Positions 1,074 to 9,413 of a stretch of 38,014 nucleotides of DNA are shown here, in pieces; within the stretch, counting starts at the first letter, position 1; each line of letters begins with the position of its first letter. Below the pieces are notes generated by a model. It was not told the DNA's origin. It searched no databases and saw nothing but the letters and a program-made list of their open reading frames with translations. The stretch comes from a virus. Taxonomy: Duplodnaviria > Caudoviricetes. The stretch lies in IMG/VR virus record IMGVR_UViG_3300049828_000145, positions 1 through 38,014 of that record; one strand, written 5' to 3'. Position numbers and translations under genes: made by a program.

Positions 1074-1625
1074 ATGAAAACAATCACAAAGACCATAGAT
1101 ATATACGAATTGCACGAACTTGAAGAAGAAGCAAAAAATAGAGCTTTAGAAGACTGGAGGGTAGGGAATTATTACTTTTTCCTAGAGTCTCACTTATACA
1201 ATCTATTAAAAGAGAAACTTGACGAAAATAATATAAAATATATAGATAATAACTGTAAAACAAAAGACGGACTTTGTTTACTATACTCATTATCACATAG
1301 TCAGGGTGATGGTTTATGTTTTACGGGTACTTTTGAGTATAGAGACATTACTGTTTATGTAACCCATAATTTTAGATATTATCATTCACAAAGTACTACT
1401 ATAGAAGCGCAAGAAACTAACAATCTAGGCTATCATATAGACGAAAGCGAACCTTTATACCAGCAAGAGAAAATATTTAGAGGAATATACGAGAGTATAT
1501 GCAAAGACTTAGAAGTACAAGGCTATGACTTTATAGAGTATGAGGACAGTATGGAAAACTTCGCAGAGTGTTGTATGTCAAACAATTACACCTTTACTAA
1601 AGACGGCGAAATGATAAACGAATAA
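1074..1625 (+). CDS. acidic early protein, SQGDG-motif family (often annotated 'antitoxin of toxin-antitoxin stability system')
   Basis: IYELHELEEEAKNRA N-terminus, YSLSHSQGDGLCFTG core and YTFTKDG C-terminus resemble this mobile-element family; true function uncertain. Confidence 0.55.
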   Translation: MKTITKTIDIYELHELEEEAKNRALEDWRVGNYYFFLESHLYNLLKEKLDENNIKYIDNNCKTKDGLCLLYSLSHSQGDGLCFTGTFEYRDITVYVTHNFRYYHSQSTTIEAQETNNLGYHIDESEPLYQQEKIFRGIYESICKDLEVQGYDFIEYEDSMENFAECCMSNNYTFTKDGEMINE

Positions 1626-1981: not shown

Positions 1982-2389
1982 ATGGATAATGAAATACTAC
2001 CAGAAGCAAGGATAAAGCAGGCACGTGAATATATTTTAAATAAGGCTAAAGGGCTTAGTAAGTATGATAGCGCTATAGAAGCTGGTTATAGTCATAATAC
2101 AGCTAGAATACCGAAAGTACTCGAAGGCAGGCGCTCTTATGCTGTAGCTTTGCAACAGATTTTAGATGACAACACTAATGTTATAGAGTCAATCTTGACA
2201 AGTGTCTCAAAAGATATAGAAAGTAATAAACTAGACGCGCTAGACATGAAGGAGAAAGTGGACATCTACAAAAAAATGGCAGAAGTACACAAGATATTGA
2301 CTCCACAAGTCACCATTAAAGAGGAACAATTAAAAGACGGTACTACTAAAAGGACTGTTTGGGGGACTACAGGCAACACAGGAGAATAA
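1982..2389 (+). CDS. terS: terminase small subunit
   Basis: KYDSAIEAGYSHNTAR matches the TerS N-terminal A-x-x-AGYS motif; 135 aa; upstream of terL. Confidence 0.75.
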   Translation: MDNEILPEARIKQAREYILNKAKGLSKYDSAIEAGYSHNTARIPKVLEGRRSYAVALQQILDDNTNVIESILTSVSKDIESNKLDALDMKEKVDIYKKMAEVHKILTPQVTIKEEQLKDGTTKRTVWGTTGNTGE

Positions 2390-2562: not shown

Positions 2563-2640
2563 GGTGATGTGGGGGGGAGACCCTTTCCGCTTGGGTGGGG
2601 TCGTAAAGTAAAAAAAGGAGTCCTGTACCCCTACCATCCC
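2563..2640. other. G-tract/C-tract element, candidate packaging (pac/end) signal
   Basis: ggtgatgtGGGGGGGagaccc...gggtggggtc...cccctaccatccc in otherwise AT-rich DNA just downstream of terS. Confidence 0.35.
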
Positions 2641-2769
2641 ATAACAACTTATATACACAGAGAATAACTTATAGGTTCTGTGTACTGGTTGTAATAAAGT
2701 TAAAAAAGCAACCATAACTATTGCAAACTGTATTATTTAAATTAAATACTGCCCTCGGTAAACCTCGGT

Positions 2770-3141
2770 CAATCAGCTCGATAAACTCGCTGATACGACT
2801 AGTATTATTATATATTGTACACTTTTCATTAAGTACAAGAATGGCCTACTAGCCATATAGCTTCTAGTCTGTAAGATAGTATTAGTTACTTTCCTACTAA
2901 AGAGATTTATCTAATATTTCCTAGCTAGTCATGTGGCCGTTGGTACGGAATTGAGCATCGTCGCTATCTGATACTAGTACGGTATACACGTTACTCCCCT
3001 AGACTCTCCGTGTATATTTTGGGTCTTTTCACCAAGTACTCAGGAGACTGCCTGAGACATCAGACCTTGCACACAAGATTTAATAGGCTTCCAGTGGGGG
3101 CTCTTGTTTGTGCGTTAGCCAACCCTTTCCACCAGGTTTAT
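2770..3141 (-). ncRNA. candidate novel structured ncRNA (~380 nt; 3' end uncertain)
   Basis: Perfect promoter directly upstream, no ORF, about 10 adjacent or nested helices (see findings). Confidence 0.6.
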
Positions 3142-3147
3142 TTTAAT

Positions 3148-3176
3148 ATTATATAGTTTTTACCACTAGATGTCAA
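3148..3176 (-). promoter_or_regulatory. consensus sigma70 promoter, leftward
   Basis: Minus-strand TTGACA (3176-3171)-17 bp-TATAAT (3153-3148). Confidence 0.85.
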
Positions 3177-3193
3177 CTTAAAACCACCACTTG

Positions 3194-3222
3194 TTGACAA
3201 TCTATCTAAGTAGTTGTATATT
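3194..3222 (+). promoter_or_regulatory. sigma70 promoter for terL, leaderless
   Basis: TTGACA(3194)-17 bp-TATATT(3217); ATG 6 nt downstream. Confidence 0.8.
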
Positions 3223-3228
3223 CAGTAA

Positions 3229-4959
3229 ATGGATGTAATCGAACAACTCCTCGATGTAGTAGTAACAATGGACGGTAGACCTGTAAAGGTTAATACCCTA
3301 CCTGTAGATTTGCAGGTAGATTTTTTAGTATCTAACCATTTTGATGTGTTTAGAAGTAAAGAAGCTTGTTTATGGAGGTTGCAACACCTGTACTACATAA
3401 TGACTAAAGACGGTCAGAAGAAAAGATTTAAACTTAACAAAGCCCAGCTACACTTTTTTAATAATTACCTAAGCCTTGGGTATAAGAAGATAGTTATCCT
3501 AAAGTCTCGACAGCTTGGGATGACTACTCTTATAAGTCTTTATTTCCTAGACCAAGTTATATTTAGACCTAACTCTGAAGCTCTACAGATTGCTCACACC
3601 CTTAAAGACGCTAGCGAGATTTTTAATAGAAAGATTGTATATGCAATTAAAAACTTACCAAATCCTATAAAGGAGGTATTGGATATATCACAAGCTAAAG
3701 CCAACAGACAACAGTTTTCCTACCCAGACGGCTCAGTGTCTGCTATCGGTGTCAGCAACTCAGCTCGTTCTGGTACGTTTAGCGTTGGTGTGCATATTTC
3801 TGAGTTGGGTAAACTAGCTAAATTATACCAAGGTCGTGCTGAAGAAATAGTTACTGGTACCTTACCAGCGGTTCCTGTTGGCGGGCAAGCAATAATAGAG
3901 TCAACGGCCGAGGGAGCTTCTGGGTTATTCTACGAGATATTTATGGGGTCGTGGAAGATACGAGATGATATAACTCCAGCAATGAGTAGGGCTCACTTTA
4001 AACCAGTCTTCTACAATTGGACATGGGACACAGAAGAAATAGAAGCTGCGTCAGTTGATGGTTTAATATCAGTGTATCAAATGGAGGAGTGTGAGATTGA
4101 CTGGAAAGAATATCAAATAGAAAACGCTCTAAGTGATAAAGAGATTAACTTCTACTACTTGAAGTACATAAACGCAAACAAAGACGTTGATAAGCTACAC
4201 CAAGAGTACCCAACTCATCCAATGGAAGCGTTCTTGTCATCAGGTTCTCCTTACTTCAATTCACGTAAGGCAGCTCAGTTCCTAGACATGTGTGACAACA
4301 ACTACAAACGTTACTCATTTATAAACGGTAAGTTTGAGCCAGACGACAGAGGTGATTTGATTATCTACGAAGAACCTAAAGGTGGTAAAAACTATGTAAT
4401 ATCTGGTGACGTAGCAGAAGGACTACTTAATGGTGACTACTCTGTTGCTATGGTTGTAGGATATGATAAAAAGATTAAAGCGTTATACAGAGGACACCTA
4501 GAGCCAGACGAATACGAAGCCTTAATACGAGCATTAGGATTTAAATACAACACAGCACTCCTTGCGGTAGAGTTCAATAAAGATGGTAACTGGGTAAACA
4601 CAGCTCTTAGGAACAACGAATATCCTAATTTATATATAAGAACTACAGTAGATGATATTACAAAAGAAGTAACACGTTCTTATGGTTGGTTGACAAACAA
4701 GAAAAATCGTGACTTTATGCTTGGTGAAGCAAAAAAACACTTTAACACCACAGAAAGTATTAACTGTAAACCACTTCTTGAAGAAATACTTACTTTTGTG
4801 AGAGATAAACGAGGTAAACCACAAGCCGCTGAAGGTAAACACGATGACGTTGTAATTTGTTACGCTATTGCTATGGCTGTACTGCAAGGAAGAGAAGATA
4901 CAAAGGAAGAAAAACCACAAACTAGCTCTCTTATTGGTGCTGTATTCAATATTAAATAA
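3229..4959 (+). CDS. terL: terminase large subunit
   Basis: Walker A LKSRQLGMTT, Walker B VHISE, coupling motif ESTA, RNase H-like nuclease GDVAEG...GDYS...HDDVV. Confidence 0.95.
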   Translation: MDVIEQLLDVVVTMDGRPVKVNTLPVDLQVDFLVSNHFDVFRSKEACLWRLQHLYYIMTKDGQKKRFKLNKAQLHFFNNYLSLGYKKIVILKSRQLGMTTLISLYFLDQVIFRPNSEALQIAHTLKDASEIFNRKIVYAIKNLPNPIKEVLDISQAKANRQQFSYPDGSVSAIGVSNSARSGTFSVGVHISELGKLAKLYQGRAEEIVTGTLPAVPVGGQAIIESTAEGASGLFYEIFMGSWKIRDDITPAMSRAHFKPVFYNWTWDTEEIEAASVDGLISVYQMEECEIDWKEYQIENALSDKEINFYYLKYINANKDVDKLHQEYPTHPMEAFLSSGSPYFNSRKAAQFLDMCDNNYKRYSFINGKFEPDDRGDLIIYEEPKGGKNYVISGDVAEGLLNGDYSVAMVVGYDKKIKALYRGHLEPDEYEALIRALGFKYNTALLAVEFNKDGNWVNTALRNNEYPNLYIRTTVDDITKEVTRSYGWLTNKKNRDFMLGEAKKHFNTTESINCKPLLEEILTFVRDKRGKPQAAEGKHDDVVICYAIAMAVLQGREDTKEEKPQTSSLIGAVFNIK

Positions 4960-8457: not shown

Positions 8458-8486
8458 TTGACAAGTTTACAAGCGTAATTTATAAT
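8458..8486 (+). promoter_or_regulatory. perfect consensus sigma70 promoter for the scaffold-capsid operon
   Basis: TTGACA(8458)-17 bp-TATAAT(8481); SD-like AAAGGAG before ATG 8529. Confidence 0.9.
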
Positions 8487-8528: not shown

Positions 8529-9413
8529 ATGATTGACATGTCAGAAAAAATTGACGTTGAAAGTCTTAACTTTCCTGAAGACACAACGGACACAGAGGTA
8601 ACACCTCAAGAAGGAAATGAACAACCAGTGGTAGAGCAGAAAACTGAAGAACCTGCAAAGGAACCAGTAATAGAAAAAACAGAAACTAAAGTAGAGACAA
8701 AAGAAGTAACGAATCCTACTGAGAAAGAAGTTAAGATTTCTAATCCACCACAAAAATACGAAGGTGAAACAGATATACAGTTTAACTTGAGACAGCAAAT
8801 TTATAACGCTGGACAAGCTAAAGCTCAAGCTGATACAGATGAAGAAAAATCTATTCTATCAAAACATATCTCTTCTCTTCGTAAAGAACTAGCACAGTCT
8901 AGTAAATCTACAAAGGTTGAAACCACTCAGTCACAACCAGAACCTGCGAAGGTTGAGGATGATGACAAAGAACAAATAAAACAAAGTTTACGTGAGATGG
9001 GGTTCTTGCCAGCTGATGAAGTTGAAGCAAGAGCAATGCAAATGATTGCACAACAATCAAGACAGCAAGAACACATATCCGCTACTAAAGAGTTTTATTC
9101 TGTGCGCAAAGATATAGCTTCAGACCCGATTAAGAAAGAAATACTTGAGAAGATAGTTGTAGAAAGGTTTAATATTACACCTAACACAACAGGAGAAGAA
9201 TTGAAGACAGCTATGGATATGGCTGCTATGTACTTATTCCCTAAGCAGAGTATTTCAGCAGGAGCCAGAGAAGCAGCTGATAAACGTGATTTATACAACA
9301 CAGGTTCTCCTGTACGTTCTGATGAAAAATCAAATCAGAAAGTAGACGATAAAACACGAAGTGCTCTCAAGTCTCAAGGTTGGTCTGATGAAGATATTGA
9401 ATCATTTACCTAA
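8529..9413 (+). CDS. capsid scaffolding protein
   Basis: E/K/P/T-rich disordered N-terminus, helical core, short C-terminal helix-turn-helix; upstream of the capsid genes. Confidence 0.75.
   Translation: MIDMSEKIDVESLNFPEDTTDTEVTPQEGNEQPVVEQKTEEPAKEPVIEKTETKVETKEVTNPTEKEVKISNPPQKYEGETDIQFNLRQQIYNAGQAKAQADTDEEKSILSKHISSLRKELAQSSKSTKVETTQSQPEPAKVEDDDKEQIKQSLREMGFLPADEVEARAMQMIAQQSRQQEHISATKEFYSVRKDIASDPIKKEILEKIVVERFNITPNTTGEELKTAMDMAAMYLFPKQSISAGAREAADKRDLYNTGSPVRSDEKSNQKVDDKTRSALKSQGWSDEDIESFT

Follow-up and report, generated by a model that had tools for sequence, protein, structure and literature searches.

What occupies the 839-nt gap between the terS-like open reading frame (ORF) and terL in a phage that is contained in freshwater DNA sequencing runs? 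The window, i.e. the whole 38,014-nt stretch of DNA analysed here, is identical to a 38-kb virus record with a completeness of 88%. A previous sequence-only reading proposed that the gap encodes an unannotated, highly structured RNA of about 380 nt, divergent from terL. The features of the gap and its borders are as follows:

1982..2389, plus strand: terS-like ORF (PHROG 641, E 8e-6, match confined to the N-terminal part)
2616..2632, minus strand: terminator-like site from a terminator scan, the latest likely 3′ end of the RNA
2702..2724, minus strand: weak hairpin and U-run, a possible 3′ end that would give a transcript of ~440 nt, read from the sequence and not called by the terminator scan
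2795..3135, minus strand: conserved RNA element of ~341 nt, homologous to L013:1345-1656(-) and L050 ~1308-1620(+)
3148..3176, minus strand: perfect sigma-70-type promoter TTGACA-17-TATAAT (12/12) from a promoter scan
3194-3222: terL's own divergent promoter-like site, from the promoter scan
3229..4959, plus strand: terL (PHROG 2, E 2e-30)

The TerL protein of the window shares 33% identity with the nearest TerL of a named phage, and its top matches in the genome collection reached 42–45% (three bins from different phyla), followed by 33–35% (two Patescibacteria-type bins). Overlong TerL frames were seen in the related phages L004 and L005 (3983-6547; 854 aa vs the usual ~575) and in L021 (944 aa), possibly reflecting an intein or a fused domain. 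Around the terminase genes of the window, the promoter-like sites at 1948-1982 and 3194-3229 stop a few bases 5′ of the terS and terL start codons, a placement which suggests leaderless mRNAs. Just 3′ of terS, at 2560-2635, lies a block composed of a G-run, CCCTTT, a second G-run and an A-run, which is also found in the RNA-less related phages L256, L230, L009, L021, L246, L007, L298 and L004 (E 6e-5 to 0.5) and is a candidate packaging-start signal or terminator.

The minus-strand promoter described by the sequence-only reading was recovered at 3176-3148 with all 12 positions matching. Perfect TTGACA-17-TATAAT sites occur twice in the window compared to 0.01 expected from shuffles, the second one (8458-8486, plus strand) preceding an ORF at 8529. 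The predicted transcription start, near 3141, lies 6 nt upstream of P1, the first conserved helix. L013 marks this 5′ border independently, as the stretch it has in common with RNA-less relatives stops at P1. The ATG frames within the element span only 6, 9, 3, 27 and 18 codons, in agreement with the earlier statement that no real ORF follows the promoter, and a 61-codon ATG frame at 2715-2530 runs across the terminator-like site (2632-2616). A short coding frame towards the 3′ end of the RNA was considered and dropped; it is open in L013 and L050 and interrupted by stops in the window. The minus-strand orientation was thus retained, and the length of ~380 nt was replaced by a conserved unit of ~341 nt (3135-2795).

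Composition and folding energy gave a divided picture. The region has a GC content of 40.9% compared to 38.2% for the window, and its immediate flanks have 30.8% and 26.4%; the proposed enrichment over the flanks holds for the 5′ ~220 nt (47.7% at 2920-3141) and fails for 2770-2920 (31.1%). When compared to shuffles, a check that the earlier reading had itself called for, the folding energy corresponded to z = -1.82 for the minus strand, a value equalled or bettered by 5 of 100 shuffles, and z = -1.60 for the plus strand, with sub-regions at -0.66 and +0.13 and the homologues at -1.08 and -0.04. As the region folds little better than shuffles, the finding is weak on energy alone, and the term "highly structured" is supported by covariation with the homologues but not by folding energy (z from -1.82 to +0.13).

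No match to known RNA families was obtained in the window with Rfam 15 (4227 models) at the gathering cut-off, and with E ≤ 10 only weak matches far below the cut-off appeared in the window gap, L050 and L175, none of them to a ribozyme family. ARAGORN found no tRNA or tmRNA genes, and blastn against named phages and plasmids returned nothing relevant. The sequence-only reading had likewise not recognised the RNA as tRNA, tmRNA, RNase P, 6S or an intron. No description of the RNA was found in the literature searched, where the alignment files of PMC10690425 could contain the motif. A K-turn and a hammerhead (its core word was found only in the leader of L050) were also considered and dropped. 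HDV-like and theta ribozymes form a nested double pseudoknot with P3/L3, P1.1 and P4; an HDV-like fold was provisionally set aside. Rfam gave no match to one, and inspection of the conserved 5′ pseudoknot showed neither P3/L3 nor P4. A loose HDV-like descriptor gave 14–30 matches per sense strand, and among the first five of each none lay at homologous places.

Homologues of the element were found in two other phages. A search with TerL yielded 25 loci, one of which was identical to the window and one of which, L013, contained an RNA match next to a TerL 58% identical to that of the window. A pattern built from the window and L013 then identified L050 as the third copy. The window RNA shares 54% identity with each homologue (144/269 and 148/272 columns), whereas L013 and L050 are 89% identical to each other (251/283 columns) and differ at only two of 106 positions in the 3′ block. 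Further searches indicated that the RNA is rare. Pattern scans of viral contigs gave 21, 3, 4 and 39 loci, with only the three known RNA sequences being genuine, and in a metagenome scan covering 36 of 64 parts, two of 119 loci were genuine, both scoring the same as L013. The pattern had no matches in the genome collection, and another 80 viral and 80 genomic TerL loci added no RNA copy. The sequencing runs listed as containing the window included no RNA run, and DNA contigs from the runs provided neither joints nor a new homologue. A model of the RNA using sequence only matched none of five genomes, and within the phylum of a Staskawiczbacteria-titled record it matched 5 of 150 at chance level (E 0.006–0.04). 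A descriptor of the 5′ pseudoknot matched only the three known RNA sequences in 5.05 Mb.

The predicted anatomy of the RNA, from 5′ to 3′, comprises the following elements:

3069..3135, minus strand: 5′ pseudoknot in which P1 (3135-3129/3097-3091) crosses P2 (3113-3102/3078-3069), from covariation
3022..3066, minus strand: Domain II, a helix (3066-3062/3026-3022) closing the P4 hairpin (3056-3051/3044-3039), from hand alignment
2983..3016, minus strand: hairpin P5 of 8 bp with an 18-nt loop, its homology to the window being positional only
2922..2966, minus strand: extended hairpin P6 of 4+3+4 bp with an ANCA tetraloop and conserved internal loops (3 two-sided changes in the unfitted alignment)
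2881..2900, minus strand: putative 3′ strands of a tentative long-range helix with the 5′ linker region (3123-3115), hand-aligned
2793..2858, minus strand: terminal helix of 12 bp (2858-2847/2804-2793) around a window-only hairpin (2838-2815)
2772..2794, minus strand: window-only 3′ hairpin

The 5′ pseudoknot contains an invariant GGCUAAY linker (3120-3114) and an invariant GCC (3088-3086); P1 has two two-sided and two one-sided changes and P2b two two-sided changes, with no pair broken. P1 corresponds to the loop-loop pairing between 3129-3135 and 3091-3097 that the sequence-only reading had suggested, and is among the best-supported parts of the structure. Domain II includes conserved GAUG and CAG words, with a closing helix whose register differs among the copies. 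The P5 loop varies between 16 and 18 nt, and in L013 and L050 it pairs with a downstream strand over 7 bp (one compensatory pair), forming a predicted second pseudoknot of which four of seven pairs are broken in the window in the same register. P6 is the most conserved sequence block, the long-range helix has a spacer of 11 nt in the window vs 3 nt in the homologues, and the 5′ strand of the terminal helix is conserved in both homologues. Some of the helices are mutually exclusive. A single strain contig of low depth differs from the window at 2 of 168 positions, both in the loop of the 2772-2794 hairpin.

Of the eleven listed helices that were checked, nine are exact reverse complements at the coordinates given; the stem at 3069-3113 and the loop-loop pairing require a bulge or G-U pairs, as the sequence-only reading had implied. 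The 3069-3113 stem, ctcagg/cctgag and ccgt/acgg are kept in the homologues, and the 2983-3016 hairpin (tatacacg/cgtgtata) is kept by position only. Both ttgtac/gtacaa and atcagc/gctgat are exact in the window but belong to window-only additions, and aacc/ggtt, tattag/ctaata and atggc/gccat found no support in the homologues, the last competing with the 12-bp helix 2858-2847/2804-2793.

The covariation anticipated in homologues was observed. In an unfitted MAFFT alignment of the three copies, 25 pairs in 5 helices were scored; all 75 cells were paired and six pairs showed two-sided changes, a number reached by 3 of 500 shuffles, while slid controls were 25–43% paired. The test is a favourable one, as the helices were picked from that same alignment. 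A blind helix count on L013 and L050 found four compensated pairs where the null mean was 0.54 and none of 150 shuffles came as high; the corresponding three-way count was not significant (5 vs 1.9 expected, reached by 16 of 150 shuffles). The hand alignment comprised 41 pairs, with 20 invariant, 4 one-sided, 17 two-sided (7 of these from P5, matched by position only) and none broken. Within the 106-nt 3′ block, one of the two differences between L013 and L050 is exactly compensated ~95 nt upstream, and the G-U pairs of the element are workable on the minus strand only. We consider the covariation of the predicted helices strong, at a level below R-scape grade given three sequences of which two are close. 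Taken with the lack of Rfam and ARAGORN matches, the two covarying homologues uphold the proposal of a novel structured phage ncRNA, whose transcription is predicted from the promoter, and 3135-2795 is very probably a genuine structured RNA that founds a family of its own.

The location between the terminase genes had suggested a role in packaging, in antisense regulation of terS or as a replication primer. In relatives, the same gap holds tRNAs, HNH or endonuclease VII genes, or small ORFs, and is thus an accessory slot. Of 26 records, the RNA model matched two, only one of which belonged to the 24 TerL relatives, and it matched none of 50 additional records; most of the surveyed records are fragments, and among the near-complete ones 1 of 7 and 0 of 8 had the RNA. 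The carrier of L050, G025, shows no match to any window ORF of ≥90 aa, and here the RNA lies ~1 kb upstream of, and on the same strand as, a presumed terS, named by reading and without a Pfam match. This distribution, including a third carrier with unrelated head proteins, speaks against the packaging role. Antisense control of terS is likewise not supported, as the element stops ~400 nt short of terS with the terminator-like site in between; a search for a 12-nt complement of the RNA to plus-strand genes gave none. A replication primer is unlikely, given that a TOPRIM primase-helicase is among the genes of G012, the complete carrier.

In the two other phages, the RNA adjoins a nuclease-like gene. 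The L013 and L050 RNAs end 12 or 17 nt before the ATG of an ORF with Pfam RNase_H matches just below the cut-off, an RNase H fold, and residues D55, E95 and D115 invariant in 60 relatives. The two proteins are 43% identical compared to 89% for their RNAs. The subfamily comprises 403 clusters at E ≤ 0.001, and the Atlas cluster closest to it is 95% viral. The RNA and ORF of L013 stand in for a 103-aa ORF and an HNH gene of L014 and L015; the left border of this exchange coincides with the opening pairs of P1, and the block lies between two similar promoter sequences. Among 77 records, the only two strong matches to the nuclease subfamily were the two RNA carriers, a count that is biased since G025 was found through the RNA, and a third, weak match was an ordinary RNase HI without the RNA. 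With only three RNA sequences, two of them close, the RNA-nuclease link represents at most two events. Two viral scans with the protein returned only the two known loci, the nuclease alignment matched 15 of 401 genomes, only weakly and to generic RNase HI, and a second set of 401 genomes had none at E ≤ 1e-9. The window, at 88% completeness, does not contain the nuclease.

Sequence features surrounding this cassette were recorded as well. In the RNase H subfamily (L013:826-1335(-), L054:2814-3317(+)), an NLAG motif replaces the fourth aspartate of RNase HI, and a conserved glutamate follows four residues after the NLAG position. A leader of ~130 nt (L013:1657-1789(-), L014:1779-1910(-), L015-L018 and L050:1184-1305(+); absent from the window) precedes the exchangeable cassette and combines a promoter and a small hairpin with a very stable terminator (z -5.5 and -7.1 in L013 and L050, upstream of the RNA) and a covarying alternative pairing whose formation would open the terminator; it is a candidate attenuator or small RNA. 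Genome G012 additionally encodes a polynucleotide kinase/phosphatase and an adjacent RNA ligase (L380:5120-6939(-)), which together form an RNA-repair module and lie several kb away from the RNA.

The retention of the fold behind a dedicated promoter in the window, where no ORF could be translated, makes the RNA itself the likely product. Since the RNA accompanies one nuclease in both other phages, we tentatively favor a reading, possible rather than probable, in which the RNA is a partner or regulator that binds and restrains the RNase H-fold nuclease, with the window copy being an orphaned decoy. The RNA would be transcribed from its own minus-strand promoter as a stand-alone pseudoknotted molecule; in the other two phages it would bind and restrain the neighboring nuclease, which would be toxic unless so restrained, and the orphan copy in the window may act as a decoy by analogy to type III toxin-antitoxin systems. 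Such systems employ pseudoknot RNAs that inhibit a nuclease, with a phage decoy copy known (PMC5086642). The reading overlaps with the decoy or sponge idea already raised from the sequence. It is strengthened by the 12–17 nt spacing and the exchange of RNA and ORF as one block between close relatives, by the RNAs being 89% identical where the proteins are 43%, and by the window copy retaining helices and a perfect promoter at 54% identity. It is weakened by the lack of a nuclease in the window, by the large size of the RNase H subfamily, by the absence of tandem repeats and of a terminator between RNA and ORF, and by RNase H normally cutting RNA:DNA hybrids; cleavage of dsRNA by RNase H is reported for one archaeal case (PMC9719913).

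A close rival, itself somewhat unlikely, is that the RNA acts alone, as a new ribozyme or a GOLLD/ROOL-like scaffold carried as accessory cargo beside an incidental RNase H gene. The invariant unpaired words, at least one covarying pseudoknot and the stand-alone promoter-RNA-terminator layout of the window fit such a molecule, as do the tRNAs in the same slot of relatives, GOLLD and ROOL being located near phage tRNAs (PMC12286853). However, ROOL, with an average of 581 nt (PMC5737381), is about twice as long as the RNA, no ribozyme family matched, and this view would leave unexplained why the distance to the nuclease gene is constant and why the two are exchanged together. Another close rival, though distinctly unlikely, is a cis-acting 5′ leader of the RNase H-like gene (an enhancer, stabilizer or switch) surviving in the window as a remnant after loss of the ORF: in two phages, the RNA stops 12–17 nt short of the start codon, lies downstream of a terminator-bearing leader with a covarying alternative pairing and has mutually exclusive helices as in a switch, yet the ORF-less window copy has kept its helices at 54% identity behind a perfect promoter.

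The remaining explanations are considerably weaker. Folding z-scores near zero and the existence of only three copies could indicate a non-functional relic or an untranscribed DNA-level element, which we regard as very unlikely in view of the two-sided changes in crossing helices, the G-U pairs that work on the minus strand only and the perfect promoter. Group I introns have a P3-P7 core with a P4-P6 domain and a G-binding pair, as well as consensus Q, R and S elements, and words resembling the latter are present, with a P3/P4/P7-like order drawable for L013 and L050; a derived group I intron-like ribozyme is nonetheless highly improbable, as there is no Intron_gpI match at E ≤ 10, the Q-like word sits in the local hairpin P6 with its three two-sided changes, the copies share no homologous P4-like pairing, P1 has no conserved U-G splice-site pair (L050 has U-A as its second pair) and there is no interrupted gene. 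The several-hundred-base structured RNA II of ColE1 has a strong promoter and is processed by RNase H, and our RNA shares its size class, promoter strength and an adjacent RNase H gene; a pre-primer of this kind would be a very long shot by this analogy, against which stand the TOPRIM primase-helicase of G012, the DnaB helicase encoded in the window, the close relatives without the cassette and the occurrence of the downstream G-rich block in phages without the RNA. A pRNA-like component of the packaging motor, suggested by all three copies lying within ~1 kb of terminase-like genes, has the lowest probability and is already largely refuted by its occurrence in a single one of the 24 TerL relatives and in none of the 50 other records, the tRNAs, HNH or endonuclease VII genes filling the slot in relatives, the unrelated head proteins of the third carrier, where the RNA is upstream of the presumed terS, and the lack of an Rfam match.

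The RNA can also be compared with known systems. The pRNA of phi29 binds the prohead and forms a ring via intermolecular loop pairing. Like our RNA, it is a phage RNA near packaging genes with loop-mediated pairing (PMC5850374). The phi29 motor cannot do without it, and every phage with that motor has a pRNA; the window phage, in contrast, has TerS and TerL, and most of its relatives lack the RNA. HEARO/omega RNAs adjoin the IscB nuclease ORF, and the processing of retron msr-msd RNA involves RNase H. The former resemble our RNA in being structured and directly upstream of a nuclease-domain ORF, and the latter in the link to RNase H; unlike these, our RNA has no Rfam match and neighbors a lone RNase H domain, and reverse transcriptase (PF00078) was detected in none of the three RNA carriers, one of which is complete.

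The type III systems ToxIN and CptIN likewise have a pseudoknot RNA upstream of a ribonuclease gene, and the pseudo-ToxI decoy of phage TE is a phage RNA copy without the nuclease (PMC5086642; see also PMC3475682). The predicted, covarying P1/P2 pseudoknot agrees with a type III antitoxin. In contrast to the short tandem repeats there, a single complex RNA is found here (TRF gave no rows, and only chance-level two-copy repeats were seen), and the strong terminator lies upstream of the RNA instead of between RNA and gene, where L013 and L050 have only a short imperfect hairpin before the ATG and no rho-independent terminator. The protein has an RNase H fold and is not ToxN; no ToxN/CptN/TenpN-type endoribonuclease was found downstream of the RNA or anywhere in the window.

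GOLLD (RF02032) and ROOL (RF03087) are similarly large, pseudoknotted, phage-borne and accessory, and are found in phage tRNA regions (PMC12286853, PMC5737381). They range from roughly 580 to over 800 nt; our RNA has ~310–340 nt where membership requires more than ~550 nt, gave no covariance model match to them or any other Rfam family, and is linked to an RNase H-fold gene. The RNA resembles an ornate phage accessory RNA and is a member of no family tested, GOLLD and ROOL included. Large pseudoknotted RNAs of bacteria and phages are rare, and those studied have yielded new ribozymes or RNA nanocages. What emerges here is a new, rare RNA family which, unlike GOLLD and ROOL, has a named candidate protein partner and is small enough for in vitro synthesis, making its function directly testable. 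Rather unlikely as a whole is the most far-reaching interpretation, a new RNA-protein module in which a 310–340-nt multi-pseudoknot RNA would control or guide a viral RNase H subfamily of ~400 clusters, as a promoter-bounded cassette mobile between unrelated phages, with the window RNA serving as a decoy against nuclease-carrying rivals. If the RNA does control the RNase H-fold enzyme, it would represent a new RNA-nuclease pairing in phage-phage competition.
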